DNA from: Eledone cirrhosa
Taxonomy: Eukaryota
DNA: 64,000 nt
Assembly (NCBI GenBank): GCA_964016885.1
Contig: OZ024749.1
Span: forward strand, 44,950,001-45,014,000
Direction: 5' to 3'
The position numbers were made by a program, and so were the translations under genes. This document shows, in pieces, positions 97-62,674 of the stretch. The notes beneath the pieces are model-generated. The model saw only the letters and a program-made list of their open reading frames with translations. It had not been told where the DNA came from and ran no database searches. How positions within the stretch are numbered: position 1 is the stretch's first letter; each line of letters starts with the position of its first letter.

Positions 97-149
97 AACA
101 AAGTCAATCTGTGAACGCAGAAGTGAATATTTAAAAAAAAACGTTGCTT

Positions 150-199
150 ATATATATATATATGTGTGTGTGTGTGTATGTGTGTGTGCGTGCGTGTGT

Positions 200-278
<79 letters not shown>

Positions 279-302
279 CGTGTGTGTGTGTGTGTTTGTG
301 TG
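150..302. repeat. (TA)n/(TG)n compound microsatellite, representative of dozens in the window
   Basis: Directly visible dinucleotide runs. Confidence 0.99.
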
Positions 303-698
303 TTTATATATTCTTAGGAGATATTTAGTTGATAGAGCGACCATTTAGTTTTTGGACACATTCCCGTGCTGCCGGCATAGATATAGGATTCTTCCACGTG
401 TGGTTTGTTAATAAAATGACTAGAAATCTTAAAGGCAGCGAATCCAGCGCGATTAAATGCAACCGAAAAATCTTTAGTTGTCGAGCAATTAAAACAATTC
501 TCTAGCGTGCTCTACCAGGAAATATTTTACTTTAGAAAATAACAATAATAATATGTGTATATATAACTATAGATTAGGGAATTGTCAAATGACAACCGTT
601 TGATCGACCCACCAAAATAAACATCTTGTTGAGTCAGCCACCACTGGACGTTATAAGCTACTCTTACCTAGAACTTGGGAAACTCAATACGATATCTC

Positions 699-3536: not shown

Positions 3537-3587
3537 CAAACATATATATATATACAAATACACACACACATATATATAGATATATGC

Positions 3588-3770
3588 ATTTAATATAGAA
3601 TGGCTTCTACATGATTAGAACGGTTTCATCCGGGAGAAATCTCTTGATGATTTCTCCCGAATGAAACAGTTTTAGTCCTGTAGAAGCCATTTCTATATTA
3701 AATATTTATACCCTCTATGTATTGAGTAACTTAATTATTGTGGTTACCCCCGATTGAACCCGGGATAAAC
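3588..3770 (+). mobile_element. TA-embedded fold-back element with decayed HHR core (family shared with 21187-21370)
   Basis: Inverted arms 3588-3651 and 3649-3703 pivot at ttgatga-tttc..gaat-gaaac. Unique tail to 3770 matches the reverse complement of 21187-21260. Confidence 0.75.
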
Positions 3771-4467: not shown

Positions 4468-4545
4468 ATTGTGGTTTGAAGGAGATTCAGCTGCTATTTC
4501 TAGCAGATTGGTGTGATCATGTACAGGCTTTCTTTGTGACTCCAT
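4468..4545 (+). repeat. Old dispersed repeat with a gctatttctagc core
   Basis: Related motifs at ~11370, ~11590, ~24410, ~43795, ~44195 and ~59110, in both orientations. Confidence 0.55.
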
Positions 4546-5233
4546 TGACAAGATATTAAATTTTGGTGGGAATTTTCTATGTAGCTTGTGTTATAAATTT
4601 TAGTGACATATATATAGACATTTATAACTCACCCCCGCTCACTCTCTCTCTCTGTCTCTCACAAACACATACACACACAGACAGACAGACACACATTCTG
4701 GTAAACAGTTGTCCACAAAGATAGGTTACGGGACAACCAGTTGAGTGGCCGGGACTCCCTGTTCTGTTTCAGATTACCCTGCTTCACGTTTGTCATTTAA
4801 ACCTAACTAATATACAAACTCATCTATCTCCTACGATAGGTGACGTTTTTATTTTGTTGTTCTTGGTTGTGATGATGGCGGCTGAGGTGGTAGTGGTGGT
4901 GGAGGTGATGGTGTGTAGCTTCAAGGCTGTCTTGATTGAGTAAATTTATGACGAAAGTTATACCCCTGTAACTTTCCCAACTTTTTTTTTTATAAATTTG
5001 GGAGTGCATTGTCTCACGAGCCCAACCTGTTTCAAAGCGGATAAGGTGTGCTCTGAAATTTAGTTCCTATTACTATCCACCCTAACGCCTTCACAAAGGG
5101 TTCCACGCAGAAATTACAACGAGCAGGTATACTTTCAGCAAAGCATATCCAAAAGAGAAGCCTTTTTCAAATGAAAAATATAAATAATATGAAAAGATTT
5201 CGCTCCTTCTGCCCTATTTGCTGTTATTCTGGC

Positions 5234-10139: not shown

Positions 10140-10585
<446 letters not shown>

Positions 10586-12500: not shown

Positions 12501-13800
12501 AGGAGAGGCAATAGTGCACGACATTGTATGGTACGGTGCTAAGAATCTGACGTAGAGGCAATAGTGCAAGACATTGTATGGTACGGTGCTAAGAATCTGA
12601 CGTAGAGGCAATAGTGCAAGACATTGTATGGTACGGTGCTAAGAATCTGACGTAGAGGCAATAGTGCAAGACATTGTATGGTACGGTGCTAAGAATCTGA
12701 CGTAGAGGCAATAGTGCAAGACATTGTATGGTACGGTGCTAATAATCTGACGTAGAGGCAATAGTGCAAGACATTGTATGGTACGGTGCTAAGAATCTGA
12801 CGTAGAGGCAATAGTGCAAGACATTGTATGGTACGGTGCTAAGAATCTGACGTAGAGGCAATAGTGCAAGACATTGTATGGTACGGTGCTAATAATCTGA
12901 CGTAGAGGCAATAGTGCAAGACATTGTATGGTACGGTGCTAATAATCTGACGTAGAGGCAATAGTGCAAGACATTGTATGGTACGGTGCTAAGAATCTGA
13001 CGTAGAGGCAATAGTGCAAGACATTGTATGGTACGGTGCTAAGAATCTGACGTAGAGGCAATAGTGCAAGACATTGTATGGTACGGTGCTAATAATCTGA
13101 CGTAGAGGCAATAGTGCAAGACATTGTATGGTACGGTGCTAAGAATCTGACGTAGAGGCAATAGTGCAAGACATTGTATGGTACGGTGCTAAGAATCTGA
13201 CGTAGAGGCAATAGTGCAAGACATTGTATGGTACGGTGCTAAGAATCTGACGTAGAGGCAATAGTGCAAGACATTGTATGGTACGGTGCTAAGAATCTGA
13301 CGTAGAGGCAATAGTGCAAGACATTGTATGGTACGGTGCTAAGAATCTGACGTAGAGGCAATAGTGCAAGACATTGTATGGTACGGTGCTAAGAATCTGA
13401 CGTAGAGGCAATAGTGCAAGACATTGTATGGTACGGTGCTAATAATCTGACGTAGAGGCAATAGTGCAAGACATTGTATGGTACGGTGCTAAGAATCTGA
13501 CGTAGAGGCAATAGTGCAAGACATTGTATGGTACGGTGCTAAGAATCTGACGTAGAGGCAATAGTGCAAGACATTGTATGGTACGGTGCTAAGAATCTGA
13601 CGTAGAGGCAATAGTGCAAGACATTGTATGGTACGGTGCTAATAATCTGACGTAGAGGCAATAGTGCAAGACATTGTATGGTACGGTGCTAAGAATCTGA
13701 CGTAGAGGCAATAGTGCAAGACATTGTATGGTACGGTGCTAAGAATCTGACGTAGAGGCAATAGTGCAAGACATTGTATGGTACGGTGCTAAGAATCTGA
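12494..13800. repeat. 50-bp tandem satellite, about 26 copies
   Basis: Unit cgtagaggcaatagtgcaagacattgtatggtacggtgctaaKaatctga. 25 exact-length units at 12551-13800 plus a variant first unit. One G/T polymorphism (T in 6 units). Confidence 0.99.
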
Positions 13801-14639: not shown

Positions 14640-14704
14640 ATTTTATCTGATGAGGACGTTTTGTTGAAGATAGCACAGTACCTCTGAAATATGTATAATA
14701 AAAT
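14640..14704 (+). ncRNA. Type I hammerhead ribozyme motif
   Basis: AUUUUAU-CUGAUGA-imperfect stem II-GAA-AUAUGUAU-A|AUAAAAU. 7-bp stem I. Lies in a ~150 bp island between TA tracts. Confidence 0.7.
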
Positions 14705-14749: not shown

Positions 14750-14804
<55 letters not shown>

Positions 14805-14807
14805 TAT

Positions 14808-14958
14808 ATGAGAATAAACGTGCTGCGTGGTTGCAAATGGGTTACATATGAATAAAGTGGTCCTTCATCAGTGATATTCCAACCATCATCGGTCTTTAAA
14901 GCGAAGAAATATCGATGATGGTTGGAAGATCACTGATGACGGACCACTTTATTCATAT
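14808..14958 (-). mobile_element. TA-embedded fold-back element (family also at 24597-24695 and ~42490-42597)
   Basis: Inverted arms 14846-14891 and 14913-14958. Shared tail gttgcacatgggttacat. Confidence 0.8.
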
Positions 14959-15391
14959 ATATATATATATATATATATATACAGGGTGGGGGATATATAT
15001 CTTCCACATTCTTTTTTTATATCTGCTCAAAATGTGGGGGATTTTTCTGCACGAACTTGTATAAAGAAAGACACAAGTATTCTTATACATATACATTATG
15101 AATTTGATGTATACATACATAATCAAATAAACAGATTCAGACAATCATACACACAGACATACATATACACACACGCTCCTACCATCATAAACAAACAAAC
15201 AGGCAAATGCCTGTATATTTACAGAGATGGGAGTGTATATTTACACACACATGCACATATATATGTGTGCGTATCTCGCTCTCTTTCTCTTTCTCTTTCT
15301 CTCTCTCTCTCTCCATTCATATGTATATATATCTATATACCTATCGATTTATATATGTATATATATATATACATATATATATATATGTGTG

Positions 15392-16308: not shown

Positions 16309-16311
<3 letters not shown>

Positions 16312-16432
16312 CAAAGGAAATGTGGTAAGGAACCAGATGGTGGATCATAACGCACCAAAGTACTCAATACTTTAGTCCAGAATTAGCCGTTCGAAACGGC
16401 TTGAGCTCAGCCGTCGGGGTCCTACTCGTTCC

Positions 16433-18991: not shown

Positions 18992-19018
18992 CTGTGAAGG
19001 ACTTATGTCCGAAACGTC
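18992..19018 (+). ncRNA. Minimal hammerhead motif, decayed by a 1-nt core deletion
   Basis: CUG-UGA-AGGAC UUAU GUCC-GAAACGUC, downstream of a pyrimidine-rich stretch in an island (18828-19110) between (CA)n tracts. No convincing stem I. Confidence 0.6.
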
Positions 19019-20814: not shown

Positions 20815-21160
<346 letters not shown>

Positions 21161-21186: not shown

Positions 21187-21370
21187 TGTATCCCGGGTTC
21201 AATTGGGGGTGCCCATAGTAAGTAAGGTAGTCAAATCATAGCAGAGTATAAATATCTAATATAGAAATGGCTTCTACAGGATTAGAGCTGTTTTATTCGA
21301 AAGAAATTATCAAGAAAGCTGATGATTTCCTTCGAATGAAACAATTCTTGAAGCCATTTCTCTATTTAAT
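21187..21370 (-). mobile_element. TA-embedded fold-back element with HHR-like core
   Basis: Homologous to 3588-3770. Short arm begins ctgatgatttccttcgaatgaaac (21319-21342). Confidence 0.75.
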
Positions 21371-21562
21371 ATATATAAATATATACATTTACGTTTATAC
21401 ATTTATGTAAATATATATACATATACATTTATAAATTTATATATATAGGTATATATATTACACCTACACACATATACGCACAAACATATATATATATATA
21501 TACATGTTGATTTAAAACTGCACTATCCACAAGTGTTTTTTAACCTTCACATCATGTCTTCC

Positions 21563-22840: not shown

Positions 22841-22905
<65 letters not shown>

Positions 22906-22943
22906 ATATTAATAAATGGAAACTATATTTATAAAACCATATT

Positions 22944-23009
22944 TATTTTATTATATATATTTCAAGGACAACCAAGGCAAATTATGGAGGGTTTTCATCA
23001 GATAAAATA
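22944..23009 (-). ncRNA. Type I hammerhead motif with decayed stem II, in element 22900-23062
   Basis: UAUUUUAU-CUGAUGA-..-GAA-AUAUAUAU-A|AUAAAAUA. Same 3' tail as the 28.1 kb and 57.5 kb elements. Confidence 0.65.
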
Positions 23010-23058
23010 CAGATTTGTTTTATAAATAAATATTGACATACCCGGAAAAAAGACAACC

Positions 23059-24338: not shown

Positions 24339-24596
24339 TACTCAGGCTAATTAATATTAGTTTTTCTCATCTACCCCTGTCCTTATATATGTCGTAGATG
24401 GTAATTATAGGAAGATTTTGCAGCTGATTTTATTACCTCGCGTGTCCTTGTAGAAACATTCATTGGTGGATCATGCAAAAATGGTTATAATTATGCTCGT
24501 GTGTTGTATAATATAGTATTTATCATTAATGTTGACACATTCCTATGTTTACACATACACACAAATATATATATATATATAAATATATATATAACA

Positions 24597-24695
24597 TGAG
24601 AAGAAAGAGGAATACTGCGTGGTTGCACATGGGTTACATATAAAATTAGTCCCTCGTCAGTGATTTGCCAACCATCATTGGTATTTCATCGCATT
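24597..24695 (-). mobile_element. Copy of the 14.8 kb family island
   Basis: Aligns with 14808-14891. Confidence 0.8.
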
Positions 24696-24763
24696 ATATA
24701 TATATATATGTGAGTGTGTGTGTGTGTGTGTATGTGTGTGCAAATATATATACATTTTCTATC

Positions 24764-25929: not shown

Positions 25930-26111
25930 AGGATCAAATCGGACAGAGGAAACAGTTGCTAGTACTATCTATCGGTTGCCACTCCGGGTAGAAGGAGCAA
26001 CGTGAAATAAAATGTCTTGCTCAAGGACATAAGGTATCGCTCGACCAAGGAATCGAACTCAGAATTTCAAGATTGTGAATTCAATTCTCTAACCACTCAG
26101 CCACACGCCTT
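25930..26111 (-). mobile_element. CORE-type SINE (family 2)
   Basis: tgtcttgctcaaggacat, B-box ggaatcgaactc and A-box taaccactcagcca, all in reverse. Confidence 0.8.
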
Positions 26112-26173
26112 AACTATATATGTGTGTATATATACATATACATATGTAATGTGTGTCGGATCCTAATCCTCCC

Positions 26174-27713: not shown

Positions 27714-27714
<1 letters not shown>

Positions 27715-27792
27715 GTGTTAAACTGATATATTCCTTCCATATACTGTACAATTGTGTTGTTATTTCTGTTTAACTTTTAAATACGTAAAATC

Positions 27793-27793
<1 letters not shown>
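27714..27793 (+). mobile_element. 3' tail of the 28.4 kb HHR family (inverted copy of 28323-28402)
   Basis: About 80 bp near-identical reverse complement. Confidence 0.9.
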
Positions 27794-27828
<35 letters not shown>

Positions 27829-27834
27829 GTGTGT

Positions 27835-28101
27835 GAATGAAGTAATTCCGTCGGAAAAGTCCAGGAAAAAAGAGTTCTCTATGTAAGCAACAAAGCTTAA
27901 TTATTATTATGTAATAAACAACATAAGGCAATTATTCCATTTACCAGTGGTTTCTTAAAAGCAAAAGGTTTTGCTTTCAATCCTCAGAATGAACAAACCA
28001 GGATTTTTTCATTCTGAGGATTGAAAGCAAAACCTTTTGCTTTTAAGAAGCCACTGGTAAATGGAATAATTGCCTTATGTTGTTTATTACATAATAATAA
28101 T
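27835..28101 (-). mobile_element. Fold-back element with an HHR in each arm
   Basis: 94-bp arms 27900-27993 and 28008-28101, one mismatch seen, 14-bp spacer. Confidence 0.92.
27936..27993 (-). ncRNA. Type I hammerhead ribozyme
   Basis: UUCAUU-CUGAGGA-UUGAAAGCAAAA CC UUUUGCUUUUAA-GAA-ACC ACU GGU-A|AAUGGA. The mirror copy on + (28008-28065) has GAAGC. Confidence 0.82.
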
Positions 28102-28164
28102 AATATATATATATATATATATACAATATTAAATAAATGGAAACTATATTTATAAAACCATATT

Positions 28165-28230
28165 TATTTCATTATATATATTTCGGGGATATCATATTAA
28201 CAATATGCTATGCCTTCCTCAGACAAAATA
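28165..28230 (-). ncRNA. Type I hammerhead ribozyme in element 28122-28290
   Basis: UAUUUUGU-CUGAGGA-AGGCAUAGCAUAUU GUU AAUAUGAUAUCCCC-GAA-AUAUAUAU-A|AUGAAAUA. Confidence 0.75.
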
Positions 28231-28422
28231 CAATATAAACAGTTTTATAGATAAATAGATTCGACATACCGTAATAACACCGACTTGCATTTGAAGAGGT
28301 TAAAATCATATATATATATATATGATTTTACGTATGTAAAAGTTAAACAGAAATAACAACACAATTGTGCAGTATATGGAAGGAATATATCAGTTTAACA
28401 CTTGAGATAGTAGGAAGAGGGT

Positions 28423-28456
28423 CTTAACGTTTCGGACGCTAGTCCTTCATCAGAAG
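28423..28456 (-). ncRNA. Minimal type I hammerhead ribozyme of classic PLE form, in element 28323-28510
   Basis: CUU-CUGAUGA-AGGAC UAGC GUCC-GAA-ACGU-U|AAG. Loopless palindromic stem III. Confidence 0.85.
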
Positions 28457-28506
28457 CAAGAATGAGAAATTAGAAAGATTGAACGGACGGGTACGGTAGA
28501 CTCGGA

Positions 28507-28564
<58 letters not shown>

Positions 28565-28609
28565 CCGTGTGATGTTATCGGGCGCATTTAATGTTAGTCT
28601 TTATTAAGG

Positions 28610-28655
28610 ATAAGTGATAAGTTTCACCTGTCTACACAGACGATCATCAGCTGAT
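28610..28655 (-). ncRNA. Hammerhead motif with decayed stems I and III
   Basis: CUGAUGA-UCGUCU GUGU AGACAGGU-GAAACUUAUC, with AATAAA about 10 nt downstream. Confidence 0.55.
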
Positions 28656-28812
28656 ACATGGATGTGAGCTTCTATATGGTCAGGCAATGACGCTTGGACA
28701 TAATAAAGAATATATATATATATAGCTTAGGGAGTACGGGGAAGTACTGGTGTTGGTACCAAATCAGACACTCTGTGCACAGGCAGCAGATCGATACTGG
28801 AGTCGGGTCCAT

Positions 28813-28864
28813 AACTCCTATGAGTCAACTTGAGCCAATCCTCAGCGAAACGCGCGTAGTAGTT
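28813..28864 (+). ncRNA. Hammerhead motif with core deletion
   Basis: AACUC-CU[G missing]AUGA-G..UGAG CCAAUC CUCAGC-GAA-ACGCGCGU-A|GUAGUU. Palindromic stem III. Confidence 0.6.
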
Positions 28865-29222
28865 CGATAGGCAATATTTATTTCTCATATGTAAACGAAA
28901 CTTCCTCGTTTTTTCTATGTGTGAGTATATATGCATATATATATGTGTATATATGTGTATATGCGTCCATGTATATACATATATGATAGGTTCTGTTAAA
29001 ATGTAATGTTATGTAGTTATTTTGTTAATGAATGTTTGATTGAAAGATGCCTATATACTAATTTGGCTATAAACACGACATGCTCAACTAAAATATTCAA
29101 TACACATATTTAGTATATGTCGCTTAGATATGATGATTTTGAATATATACTCTCTGCTTTATAATGCTCTATATTAGAAATTTCTGTTTTAATAAAATAT
29201 GTATGTATGTTGATAAGAGTTT

Positions 29223-33182: not shown

Positions 33183-33377
33183 TAACGAAGGAAATGTGGT
33201 AAGGTACCAGATGGACCATAACGCACCAAAGTACTCAATACTTAGGTTAGTAGAGTGGGTAATAGGAACAAGTATGACCCCGACGGCAGAGCTGACGGCT
33301 AATTCTGGACTAAATTAGTTCAGAATTAGCCGTCGAAACGAAACGGCTTGGGCTCTGCCGTCGGGGTCATACTTGCT

Positions 33378-33381
<4 letters not shown>
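33183..33381. mobile_element. TA-embedded hairpin element
   Basis: Third copy. Central stem gacggctaattctggacta/tagttcagaattagccgtc. Confidence 0.9.
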
Positions 33382-33435
<54 letters not shown>

Positions 33436-35264: not shown

Positions 35265-35719
35265 TGCCTCTTCTACTCTATCTATTAGCTCCTTTTCCTT
35301 CCTATTCCTATCCGCAGCTAGAACCTTACTAAATTCTATCGAGACTACTCTAATCTCTCTCTTTAGAGATACCCACCACCTGCTGTTGACGATCGCTCCA
35401 GTCAACCGTTCCTTAACTAACGTACTAATCCGATTCCTGTAGGCTCTACTTGCCGGCAAGGACAAGTTGAGCTTTCAGTAACCGGGGCCCTGTCTATGAG
35501 TTCTGTCAAGGTTGACCATGCAGGTCACTAAACGGGTCCGAAGCCTGCCGCCGCTAGCACCGCATCCAGGTAACCATGGTCGACCCTATCGAACGCCTTA
35601 GATTGATCCAAGTTGATCAGAGCCCCACCAAAGCCGGATTCGTTCCCAACCCTCTCTATGATGTATCGCATGAGGTGGAGGTTGTCATGGATGGACCTGG
35701 ACGGGATAGCGCATGTCTG
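35265..35719 (-). mobile_element. Tx1/L1-clade LINE ORF2 fragments (RT segment and post-endonuclease linker)
   Basis: 35719-35531 encodes QTCAIPSRSIHDNLHLMRYII..ALINLDQSKAFDRVDHGYL..AGFGP. 35528-35265 encodes RQGPGY*KLNLSL..RWWVSLKREIR. Confidence 0.9.
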
Positions 35720-35745
35720 CCTATCTGATTATTATTATATATACA

Positions 35746-41409: not shown

Positions 41410-41431
41410 ACATATATATATATATATATAT

Positions 41432-41519
41432 AAAAAGTCACACATGTTCAGCGCATCGGTAGGGGTTATCCTACATGGATATAAAGTAGTGGCCGTACTC
41501 GAAAACGAGTTTGCAGCCA

Positions 41520-41553
<34 letters not shown>

Positions 41554-41918
41554 TGGCTGCCAATTCGTTTTCGAGTACGGCCACTACTTTATATCCATGT
41601 ATATATATATATATATGGTGGCTGCCAACTCGTTTTCGAGTACGGCCACTACTTTACATCCATGTAGGAGAACCCCTACCGATGCGCTGAACATGTGTGA
41701 CTTTTTAGTCCAGCCAGCGACTTGAAAACTCTGGTACAAACACTACACTTGTGACAATTATTGACATATAGTGCTGGGCCCACGGTTCCATGTGATGACA
41801 GGTGCAGAGAGATCTCCAAATATAAAGCAATGCCGGTGCCGTGAAGCTTTTATAGTGAGCAAAGGCACTGCACAAAGCCAGTCCCACTCTCTTAACCAAG
41901 ATGATATTTACCAAAAAG
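41432..41918 (+). mobile_element. Repeat of the 1187 family with inverted (41432-41523) and direct (41550-41600) partial duplications of one end
   Basis: All three pieces start at atggtggctgc and are separated by TA tracts. Confidence 0.85.
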
Positions 41919-41988: not shown

Positions 41989-42011
41989 GTGTGTGTGTGT
42001 GTATGCAAATG

Positions 42012-42113
42012 GTAAACAGAAATAACAATACAATCGGTACAGTATATGGAAGGGATATATTGGGTTAATACTTGATATAGCAGGAAGAGGGTCTCAACGT
42101 TTCGGACACTAGT

Positions 42114-42116
<3 letters not shown>
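42012..42116 (-). mobile_element. Copy of the 28.4 kb HHR family truncated at stem II
   Basis: Minus strand aggactagtgtccgaaacgttgagaccctcttcc.... CUGAUGA is replaced by a TA tract. Confidence 0.85.
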
Positions 42117-42166: not shown

Positions 42167-42377
42167 ATAATAATAAATTTGAAGACTAAAATCCAAAGAG
42201 GGCTCGGTAAGGATAAATATATATCAAATATATAAGAACCGTAGAGCAAATATTTATTAAAATAACAGATTAAAGTTTAAGCAAAGAATCGCTGCTTTCA
42301 CCCTCAACGGGATCTTCACCTAAGGGTGAAAGCAGCGATTCTTTGCTTAAACTTTAATCTGTTATTTTAATAAATAT
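42162..42377 (-). mobile_element. Fold-back element pivoting in the HHR core
   Basis: 55-bp arms 42250-42304 and 42323-42377. The long arm stops at (C)UGAAGA. Same family as 21-150 and 58160-58266. Confidence 0.9.
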
Positions 42378-43055
42378 ATATATTAGCTTTCCCCTGTGTT
42401 GTTTACTTGTTTCACTCGCTTTACGCGTTTCAATTGTCCTAATAACTTATTTTAGTTATTATTGCACCAACGTGAGGTATATGATTTTTAATGCAATGAA
42501 ATACCAATAATCGTTGGAAAATCACTGATGAGGGACTCAATTATAACATGTTATCCATGTGCAACCATGCAGCATTCTTCTCCCCATATTTTTCATACAT
42601 ATATATATATATATATATATTACGGTGCATGTTGAGCTATACTTTGTTGATATATAACGATAGTGCTCAAAATGTAGCATATAGTGTAAACAAAGACATG
42701 CTAAAACCTACATAATATATATTTACAGATTTTAAAACAAGTAGGTAACTGCATGGTATTTAAAAGTTTATATATACGTGCATGATTGCGTGCACACACA
42801 TACACACATACAGAAAGAGAACTCACTGTTTCATACACATTCTTATTTGTTGTATGCATATTTCGTACAAAATATTCATTGCATAATCATACATACGCAT
42901 ACATGTATTCATCTATACACTTATCTACCTGTATTATATGCAGCTATACACACATTTACTTACAAATTCATGCAAAATACATGTATGTATTTCTAAGATA
43001 ACTTCGTATGTTTCATATATGGTTATATATATATATAAGGTTATATATATATATA

Positions 43056-55510: not shown

Positions 55511-56051
55511 AATAATTGTTTCTATTTTTGGCACAAGGCCAGCAATTACACAGTATATTACTGGCACTTTATTTTATCGACCCCGTAAGGATGAAAGGCA
55601 AAGTTAACCACGGCGGCATTTTAACCCAGGCTGTAAAGGGCCGTAACTCTATGCTGCAAAGAATGGGGTACGACACTCTACCGATAATTGTTTCTACTTT
55701 TGGCTCAAGGCCAGCAATTATTCCAGTGTATTACTGGTTCTTTATTTTATCGACCCCGTAAGGATGAAAGGCAAACTTAACCACGGCGGGGATTTGAACC
55801 CAGCCTGTAAAGGGCCGTAACTCAATGCTGCAAAGCATGGGGTACGACACTCTACCGGTAATTGTTTCTACTTTTGGCATAAGGCCAGCAATTATCCCAG
55901 TGTATTGCTGGTACTTTATTTTGTCGACCCCGTAAGGATGAAAGGCAAACTTAACCACGGCGGGAGTTGAACCCAGGCCGTAAAGAGCCGCAACTCTATG
56001 CTGCAAGCCATGGTGTCCGACCCTCTACTGATACTGCCAATCCAATCCACC
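55511..56051 (-). mobile_element. Head-to-tail SINE family 1 trimer
   Basis: Units of about 173 bp starting near 55511, 55684 and 55858. Only the rightmost unit has the full head. Confidence 0.93.
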
Positions 56052-57243: not shown

Positions 57244-57252
57244 CAGTATATA

Positions 57253-57454
57253 TAACAAAGGAAATATGGTAAGGAACGAGATGGACCATAACGCACCAGA
57301 GAACTCAATTCTTATGGTAGTAGAGTGGGAAATAGGAAAAAGTATGACCCCGACGGCAGAGATCAAGCCGTTTCGATGGCTATTTCTGGAATAAATTCTG
57401 TCCATAACTAGCCGTCGAGACAGCTTGAGCTCTGCCGTCGTGGTCATACTTTTT

Positions 57455-57458
<4 letters not shown>
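57253..57458. mobile_element. TA-embedded hairpin element
   Basis: Fourth, more diverged copy. Confidence 0.88.
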
Positions 57459-57497
<39 letters not shown>

Positions 57498-57500
57498 ACG

Positions 57501-57684
57501 TACGATATTAAACAAATGGAAACTATATTTATAAAACCATATTTATTTCATTATACATATTTCGGGGATACCATATTAAAAATATGGCATGCCTTCTTCA
57601 GATAAAATACATGGCATCCCCGAAATATGTATAATGAAATAAATATGGTTTTATAAATATAGTTTCCATTTGTTTAATATCGTA
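57501..57684 (-). mobile_element. Fold-back element with 74-bp arms 57501-57574 and 57611-57684
   Basis: Near-perfect inverted duplication of the 22.9/28.1 kb family 3' end. Confidence 0.92.
57544..57609 (-). ncRNA. Type I hammerhead ribozyme
   Basis: UAUUUUAU-CUGAAGA-AGGCAUGCCAUAUU UUU AAUAUGGUAUCCCC-GAA-AUAUGUAU-A|AUGAAAUA. Confidence 0.8.
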
Positions 57685-58159
57685 TATCTACTCCAAAACT
57701 TGTCGAGTGCTTTATATCAGTTATAAAATATTTACTTGTTGTAACCCAACAATTTTAAATAAAACTTTTGCATATATGTATATATATATATTTTTTCCAT
57801 TTATTAATATTATTGATATTAATAATATTGCCGATAATAACTGTTGAGTGCTTCTAATCTTTTGTGAAATTAACTCTGTTGACTAATAGGAAAGCCATGG
57901 ACGACACCAGGTCTTTTTAGCTATGATTTTGAAAGTAGGTTTATAATTATCAATTTTAATTTTAATTTTGTAGCTGTCTCGGTGGCCTAGTAGGATGAAT
58001 CATACATGAATAAAAAAACAACTAATAACTTATTGTTTATGTATATATATATATACAAATAAAGATTCAGCGAGAAATGCATTTCGGCGGGCAGGAAAAG
58101 CGAAGCGAAACGCAAAATATATATATATATATATTATCGTCTTCCTGTCTTCCTTCGGT

Positions 58160-59045: not shown

Positions 59046-59429
59046 CTATTACTAATAACATTATATAGTACCGATGATTTATTTTCTTAAAATCGTATTT
59101 TGACTGAGGTTCGGCAACTATTTCTAGCATTTTGAGTAACTATATAGGCTTGTCTCTAGATGCTTCATTGTAATCAAGTTTTTTTTTATGTGTTTGTAGA
59201 CGTCTTTTGTGCTGTGGTTATCCTGTCTCCATTAGAGCTATTACTAATAACATTATATAGTACCGATGATTTATTTTCTTAAAATGGTATTTTGACTGAG
59301 GTTCGGCAACTATTTCTAGCATTTTGAGTAACTATATAGGCTTGTCTCTAGATGCTTCATTGTAATCAAGTTTTTTTTATGTGTTTGTAGATGTCTTTTG
59401 TGCTGTGGTTATCCTGTCTCCATTAGAGC
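59046..59429. repeat. 192-bp tandem duplication
   Basis: 59046-59237 and 59238-59429 are near-identical. Confidence 0.95.
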
Positions 59430-60989: not shown

Positions 60990-61133
60990 CTCATTTCTAC
61001 AGCTGAGTAAACTGGAGTAACGTGAAATAAAGTGTCTTGCTCAAGGAAACAACACATTACCCGGTCCGAGAATTGAACTCACAACTTTCGATTGCAAGCC
61101 GAATGCTCTAACCACTAAACCATGCGCCTTCAC
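60990..61133 (-). mobile_element. CORE-type SINE (family 2)
   Basis: gtgaaataaagtgtcttgctcaaggaaacaac plus A and B boxes in reverse. Confidence 0.82.
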
Positions 61134-62424: not shown

Positions 62425-62674
62425 ATAATAAAGCCAAACAATGCAGGTATGGACATAGAATAAAGAATGCAAATGCAAAAGTTATTGTTGACAATTAGTC
62501 TTTTACCTTAGATTTATTTAAATGTCCTTAATTTTCGAGATAATATCTCGAAGAAGAGATATTATCTCGAAAATTAAGGACATTTTAATAAATCTAAGGT
62601 AAAAGACTAATTGTCAACAATATCTTTTGCATTTGCCTTCTATGTCCATACCTGCATTGTTTTGACTTTATTAT
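62425..62674. mobile_element. ~250 bp fold-back palindrome pivoting on an HHR core remnant
   Basis: Arms of about 120 bp with a 6-bp spacer (62550-62555). The right arm reads GAAGA-A-GAGAUA U UAUCUC-GAA-AAUU-A|AGG. Confidence 0.88.

Follow-up and report, generated by a model that had tools for sequence, protein, structure and literature searches.

The minimal hammerheads of Penelope-like elements (PLEs) sit in pLTRs, and a genome can hold many families of them, mostly as single truncated copies, with some motifs lying 100-700 bp apart on opposite strands (Cervera & de la Pena 2014, PMC4209133; here and below, published work is cited from the parts of the texts that were available). PLE insertions show 5′ truncation, an inverted 5′-truncated copy, a one-sided tail, (TA)n targets and target-site duplications of variable length (Craig et al. 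2021, PMC8557442). In vitro, the PLE endonuclease cleaved ATT motifs and both strands were extended, and two start sites of reverse transcription account for the tail (Frangieh et al. 2024, PMC11167929). PLEs have been reported in Octopus vulgaris (PMC13282606), which is relevant to the present DNA only if its host is octopus-like, as its appearance suggests.

We analyzed a stack of hammerhead-bearing islands in a 64-kb stretch of DNA (the window, meaning the whole stretch analyzed), which is AT-rich, animal-like, dense in (TA)n and (CA)n tracts, and contains a high-copy SINE-like repeat. The stack resembles the published PLE minimal hammerheads in its core boxes, in palindromic stem III, in the presence of several unrelated families in one genome, in the bulged base before stem II with G-C closing (islands B and C), and in the mostly isolated truncated copies, some of them close together on opposite strands. 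It differs in that five families occur in 1.2 kb with no coding frame attached, and in that island A is without the G10.1-C11.1 pair (compared with the available text of PMC4209133). For insertion structure, the comparison is with the endonuclease-bearing (EN+) PLEs Penelope/Poseidon, Neptune, Nematis and Hydra (PMC8557442, PMC11167929). Shared features are 5′ truncation, a head-to-head inverted copy (A, and the B copy at 57501-57690), a putative one-sided extension, (TA)n or ATT targets and a variable target-site duplication. The tail-to-tail geometry of a0 and C around a TA tract is atypical of the PLE arrangement described in the available text of PMC8557442, and extension x, at ~65 nt, is longer than the published PLE tail of 30-40 bp.

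Two further systems are similar in outline. SaTar arrays of plant non-autonomous Mu-like elements (Valdes Franco et al. 2018, PMC5907723) are linear arrays of unrelated, uninterrupted elements with microsatellite joints that are targeted and regenerated, but these are plant DNA transposons, whereas the present locus consists of retroelement-like ends with hammerheads and variable 5′ ends. Animal non-LTR retrozymes (Cervera & de la Pena 2020, PMC7229834; Li et al. 2026, preprint 10.64898/2026.07.22.740005) have type I hammerheads 150-450 nt apart in AT-rich DNA and a proposed PLE origin. In them a single sequence is repeated head to tail, every unit having its own hammerhead, whereas the units found here are unrelated, partly decayed and in mixed orientation. 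A non-LTR retrozyme is ruled out for this locus, as 27714-28920 contains only microsatellite repeats and no tandem unit, and the islands show no alignment to one another.

Published work already covers hammerheads in PLEs, the targeting of TA and stacks of mixed families in TA repeats, and the present stack follows from these known parts. A search of titles and the first lines of abstracts, in a collection with few subscription papers, returned no stack of PLE hammerhead remnants from several families within a single TA tract. These families may already be present in repeat libraries supplied with PMC13282606 or PMC8557442. We consider it very likely that the locus is a stack of pLTR remnants, the 5′-truncated 3′ ends of several endonuclease-bearing PLEs that are unrelated to one another. 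It is most likely debris of mobile elements, in which the hammerheads are passengers rather than an RNA-cutting device.

Layout of the locus and state of its hammerheads

The features of the locus are collected in Table 1. The initial annotation had described five different hammerhead families separated by short TA tracts, the first four motifs being on the minus strand. The five islands indeed show no mutual alignment (blastn, E<0.05). TA tracts are present between A and B, B and C (28308-28323), C and D, and D and E, but the left end of A adjoins a 65-nt non-TA segment, with no TA tract there. Each of a0, A-right, B, C and D has its 3′ end directly against a TA tract, and E ends in a degenerate TA/TG tract. 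The motifs of A, B, C and D are on the minus strand as described, which hides a mixed orientation of the arms, four being minus (A-left, B, C, D) and three plus (a0, A-right, E). Overlooked in that description were a0 and the 23-bp direct repeat around the B+A block.

Table 1. Features of the hammerhead stack, in window coordinates.
Feature	Position	Strand	Description
a0	27714..27792	+	inverted copy of the C 3′ end, 79 nt, without hammerhead; TA tracts flank both sides
23-bp exact direct repeat, left copy	27786..27808	+	final 7 nt of a0 followed by (AT)8; taken as target-site duplication of B
Interrupted (AT)n/(GT)n tract, a0 to x	27793..27836		
x	27837..27899	-	~65 nt, non-repeat, continuous with the 3′ end of A left; putative one-sided PLE "tail" of A
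A left arm	27900..27997	-	5′-truncated element end, intact minimal hammerhead
A right arm	28004..28101	+	inverted copy; hammerhead at 28014 with GAAG in place of GAAA
TA tract A/B	28102..28123		
B	28124..28300	-	5′-truncated element end, intact hammerhead core
23-bp direct repeat, right copy	28301..28323	+	its (AT)8 is read as the original spacer of the a0/C palindrome
C	28324..28509	-	5′-truncated element end, intact minimal hammerhead
(TA)27 tract C/D	28510..28563		
D	28564..28709	-	island, decayed hammerhead-like motif
TA tract D/E	28710..28724		
E	28725..28925	+	island, decayed hammerhead-like motif

Neither at the locus nor elsewhere in the window did the screened frames include an RT or endonuclease frame that could be tied to one of the five families; at the locus itself truncated ends would be expected to have none. 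Comparison of the 94 complexity-filtered window frames of at least 60 aa with Pfam identified no host gene and gave a single match at E≤0.01, an RT fragment at 35531-35728(-) (RVT_1, E 0.0013, below the cut-off). This fragment, which we take to be L1/Tx1-like, lies 6.6 kb from the hammerhead locus and is unrelated to it. A sigma-70 promoter scan (4 found, 4.7 expected) has no relevance to an animal genome. Other repeats in the window include a highly homogeneous 50-bp tandem array (12504-13800, 25.9 copies, 99% matches), a recent 193-bp tandem duplication (59046-59429, 98% identical), and the dispersed SINE-like repeat of ~190 bp, found among the matches listed at 2727, 5908, 6200, 18311, 22317, 24147, 35731, 36240, 45278, 53639, 55512-56050, 58705 and 62760.

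Hammerheads were searched with a strict descriptor, set after the motifs had been seen, that asks for both core boxes, three or more base pairs in stem I, and a stem III that is palindromic. It found seven motifs in 64 kb, at +14647, +21571, -23001, -27987 (A), -28222 (B), -28453 (C) and -57601. When the window was shuffled with the microsatellites fixed in place (n=200), 183 shuffles contained no motif and 17 contained one. A cruder first scan was non-discriminating (2 observed; shuffle mean 0.29, maximum 3, n=100).

The initial annotation had placed hammerhead motifs in all five islands and in a mirror copy in A. Its minus-strand positions 27936, 28165 and 28423 correspond to the stem I 3′ ends of A, B and C, the D motif ends at ~28610 as given, and 28813 is just 5′ of the E core. 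The motifs of A, B and C are intact and pass the strict descriptor (three of the six copies at the locus), whereas the other three are damaged: the mirror copy A′ (+28014) has a changed core and passes a lenient scan only, and D and E are decayed and fail both scans. The core boxes CUGANGA and GAAA are intact in A (-27987), B, C and D, but not in A′ (GAAG) or E (without G5), so that both plus-strand motifs are core-damaged. G5 and A15.1 (hammerhead numbering) are essential.

In A, the first core box (27987-27981) is followed by a long stem II and GAAA at 27954-27951, with a predicted cut after 27942. B has its core at 28222-28216, an eroded stem II, GAAA at 28184-28181, a palindromic stem III and a predicted cut after 28173. 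C (core 28453-28447) has a 4-bp stem II, GAAA, a 4-nt palindrome and a predicted cut after 28426. Stems I and II are in register in all three, with a stem I of 6, 8 and 3 bp and a stem II of -8.9, -4.9 and -3.9 kcal/mol in A, B and C, respectively. They are not in register in D or E. Self-pairing of stem III is complete in B (8/8), C (4/4) and E (8/8), near-palindromic in A (0.89) and 2/6 in D. The bulged base after A9 and the G10.1-C11.1 pair are present in B and C, and absent from A and D.

The core boxes of D, at 28650 and 28625, are accompanied by broken stems I-III: stem II is out of register, stem I is unformed, and the cleavage site carries a 7-nt tandem duplication. E has its first box at 28818, GAAA at 28847 and an 8-nt palindrome. 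No other copy of D or E was found in the window, and the putative family status and hammerhead ancestry of both rest on resemblance.

At the gathering score, no Rfam hammerhead was found in the whole window. The sole match was tRNA-like (61066-61122(-), 29.8 bits), in a repeat common to 25994-26115 and 10214-10280, and is probably a SINE head. Among the 59 Rfam matches to E=10 around the locus there was likewise no hammerhead, and the matches were miRNA-hairpin and TA-repeat noise. Covariance models of the C and B types, run over the window with filters off, gave no match at A, D or E to E=5, which says only that these three are other families, since the models are family-biased. The C model gave two partial matches, at 18995-19018(+) and 42096-42116(-).

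The C-type core and stem II pattern is present in 20 metagenome loci, and was not found in viral contigs. An alignment was made of C with 19 of the 20 loci, omitting L006 (a near duplicate of L005) and using one of two L014 matches. Stem I, which was not included in the search pattern, pairs in 75.4% of the cells, compared with 48.0 ± 5.5% when shuffled and 28-44% when slid. None of 500 shuffles reached the observed pairing, and 19 two-sided changes were present, both figures being inflated by kinship among the loci. Judged by this sequence comparison, the C-type motif appears to be a real hammerhead. At L014, two C-type hammerheads overlap on opposite strands (4501-4563).

At one of these 20 loci outside the window (L019), the C-type motif is preceded on its own strand, at a distance of 92 nt, by the end of a 154-aa RT remnant (Pfam RVT_1 at E 5.9e-5, which is below the curated cut-off), and an inverted piece of the motif is found upstream. 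In the thumb region this remnant presumably has PLE-like motifs. The frames of L002 and L014 matched no endonuclease family in Pfam; the L002 frame at 125-538(-) presumably resembles a PLE endonuclease. The apparent direct link to PLEs is limited to the C-type motif, in another organism, at 1 of the 20 loci. For A, B, D and E, PLE membership is proposed from the anatomy of their insertions and not from a linked protein.

Copies, palindromes and probable order of insertion

The three copies of the C family in the window (186, 116 and 79 nt) have a common 3′ end and variable 5′ ends, the PLE trait of a shared 3′ end with variable 5′ truncation. The dispersed copy lies at 42001-42116 (86%), and in it a TA tract interrupts just before the first core box. 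The shortest copy, a0, has 2 mismatches in 79 nt to 28402-28324 of C, compared with 83% identity to 42072-42001 of the dispersed copy. The B family shows the same trait with three copies that have a common 3′ end: B itself, for which homology is shown over 28122-28250 and the remainder is assigned by continuity, 57501-57611 (92% identical) and 22894-23013. The PLE trait of an inverted 5′-truncated copy is seen in A and in the B copy at 57501-57690, which forms a head-to-head palindrome as A does; truncation and inversion of this copy fall at 57612.

Four further B-type minimal hammerheads occur in the window, at 14647(+), 21571(+), 23001(-) and 57601(-). Across the five B-type motifs the core and stems I and III are kept, and N7 and stem II vary. 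Covariation was not above that of shuffles, 115 of 500 of which reached the observed value, and the B-type pattern was absent from prokaryote genome contigs.

The arms of A, 98 bp long with a 6-nt spacer, differ by 2 mismatches in 98, one of which falls on a core base. Neither a second independent copy of A nor a second copy of x was found in the window. One-sided extensions are found on other palindromic inserts in the window, and one family shares its extension between copies; we infer that x is the one-sided PLE tail of A. An assembly fold-back artefact as the source of the A and a0/C palindromes is judged unlikely, because the arms differ (2/98 and 2/79) and palindromes of this kind are found in other families throughout the window.

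These other palindromes are varied. TA-flanked palindromic inserts at 16311-16432, 20817-21011, 33185-33382 and 57244-57459 form a family with a shared one-sided extension of ~75 nt, in which no hammerhead was found; they are possibly a PLE family without a hammerhead. A palindrome at 41431-41707 (related copy at 1184-1447) is centered on a TA tract, with the geometry of a0/C and an extra partial arm. The repeat family at 14774-14961, 24594-24696 and 42499-42620, with one palindromic copy, has a hammerhead-like first box, and no second box was found nearby. Further palindromic inserts are at 62425-62674, which has a decayed hammerhead-like center and a perfect stem II-like hairpin, and at 42250-42377, 21247-21377 and 3572-3722.

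The initial annotation had proposed serial insertion into TA tracts, and had offered the recurrence of the whole 1.2 kb elsewhere as one fixed unit as the result that would speak against it. Within the window no such unit recurs. Two separate copies of B and one of C lie against their own TA/CA tracts without neighboring islands, which suggests that the islands were inserted independently. The dispersed copies and the 23-bp direct repeat both bear out the proposal, and serial, independent insertion of the islands into TA tracts is supported at the level of sequence.

The direct repeat is exact and flanks the whole B+A block. Its 7-nt part adjoins a TA tract at 3 of the 560 tract flanks in the window, all three at this locus. 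The repeat appears target-site-like, as if B had been inserted into an existing a0-(AT)8-C palindrome. Together with the inverted copy a0, it suggests the order C, then B, then A. The a0 copy may derive either from a second priming event or from fold-back repair. D and E are perhaps older, as their decay suggests, and their order relative to the other islands is not readable.

We propose that a GIY-YIG endonuclease of the element would nick an AT-rich (TA)n target, and that the free 3′-OH would prime reverse transcription close to the RNA end. Copying would halt after 80-200 nt, such that only the end with the minimal hammerhead is inserted. Every insertion would leave TA on both sides, so that local targets multiply and later, unrelated families can land adjacent to earlier ones. 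At this locus, a0-(AT)8-C would have been present as a single tail-to-tail palindrome, which B would have entered with a 23-bp duplication. A, as a head-to-head pair with one-sided x, would then have entered the tract on the 3′ side of B. The hammerheads would once have served their parent elements and would now be in neutral decay.

The direct repeat surrounds the entire B-A-x block and not B alone, and to the left of x there is a long, interrupted tract, which might be expected of an older source locus. These two observations would also suit a move of B-A-x as one unit, in which a B transcript extended through a neighboring A and its flank and was inserted with the 23-bp duplication (3′ transduction). 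We regard this as improbable, because the other two B copies are without an adjacent A, and x-like one-sided extensions occur on other palindromic inserts of the window, shared between copies in one family.

The islands could alternatively be SINE- or MITE-like non-autonomous elements, fixed short units with PLE-derived hammerheads, their palindromes arising by fold-back repair at TA tracts and not in the course of insertion. The window contains several TA-flanked palindromic inserts, the one at 41431-41707 being centered on a TA tract like a0/C, and plant Mu-like elements offer a precedent for arrays of mixed families with microsatellite joints (PMC5907723). Fixed units do not fit the copies of the C and B families, which have common 3′ ends and differing 5′ ends, as aborted reverse transcription predicts, and we give this explanation little chance.

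Clustering and a proposed read-through RNA

The locus had been called a ribozyme hotspot. Clustering of three of six strict matches within 470 bp gives p=0.003 under uniform placement, and p=0.020-0.024 under TA-tract nulls; with a fuller census (3/7, 3/9), the TA-tract nulls give p=0.02-0.08. Including D and E (5/11 in 850 bp) lowers p to 0.001-0.002, which is generous, as equally decayed remnants elsewhere are uncounted. All of these p values are post hoc, the spot having been chosen by eye. A modest enrichment at the locus is plausible; the term hotspot has to be set against the four of seven descriptor matches that lie elsewhere in the window. A further reading is cross-family homing, in which the PLE machinery would be drawn to TA tracts near earlier PLE ends more than TA density explains. 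The B duplication, reaching 7 nt into the end of a0, fits such homing, which we nevertheless consider doubtful.

It had further been suggested that a minus-strand read-through transcript could be cut into pieces of about 200-250 nt. The spacings from D to C to B to A (190, 253 and 231 nt) agree with this, whereas cutting itself is unsupported, with A predicted to be paired, D decayed and no partner present. As a rival explanation, successive hammerheads would cut a transcript of the stack into pieces of ~190-250 nt. In its favor, the minus strand has three intact cores, the spacings between their predicted sites being 253 and 231 nt, and the hammerhead fold of the A arm alone is predicted to lie within 1.9 kcal/mol of the minimum-energy fold. 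Within the palindrome, the active fold of A is predicted to be 78.8 kcal/mol above the minimum, and the blocking arm is transcribed first. In the read-through RNA all seven bases of the first core box of A are predicted to be paired (unpaired probability 0.00), and the active folds of B and C are predicted at 8.7 and 7.7 kcal/mol above their minimum-energy folds; all folds are equilibrium predictions.

D is decayed, the arms are in mixed orientation, and no intact same-family dimer partner exists at the locus. Such a partner is needed for C, whose stem III is only 1 bp, and a0 carries no hammerhead. In published work, as far as the available texts go, a single Schistosoma minimal hammerhead did not cleave and its multimers cleaved weakly (PMC4209133). 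For an Anolis PLE hammerhead, no RNA-seq read ended at its site, and cleavage needed the element protein, which also makes trans helpers conceivable (PMC11167929). Read-through cutting is unlikely: the 98-bp hairpin is predicted to keep A locked, and the minimal hammerheads described for PLEs cleave weakly and depend on a dimer partner or a protein. As an account of the locus, we give such cutting hardly any credence.

Significance of a probable stack of PLE ends

The reading of the locus as stacked PLE ends makes it a teaching example of how such ends pile up in TA microsatellites, with an order that is partly readable from the 23-bp duplication. Hammerhead "hotspots" in TA-rich animal genomes can stem from targeting, not from selection on RNA processing. 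Cross-family homing, if shown genome-wide, would matter more, as it would bear on the targeting rule of PLE endonucleases.

If the locus were transcribed, and parent RNAs or proteins completed C and B in trans, a 253-nt C-to-B piece with 5′-OH and cyclic-phosphate ends would be expected. Such a piece could circularize, and its mismatched stem I halves would prevent re-cutting. That stacks of PLE ends are a cradle for retrozyme-like RNAs seems very improbable to us; if stacked unrelated hammerheads did release or circularize RNA, they would provide a route from PLE debris to retrozymes.
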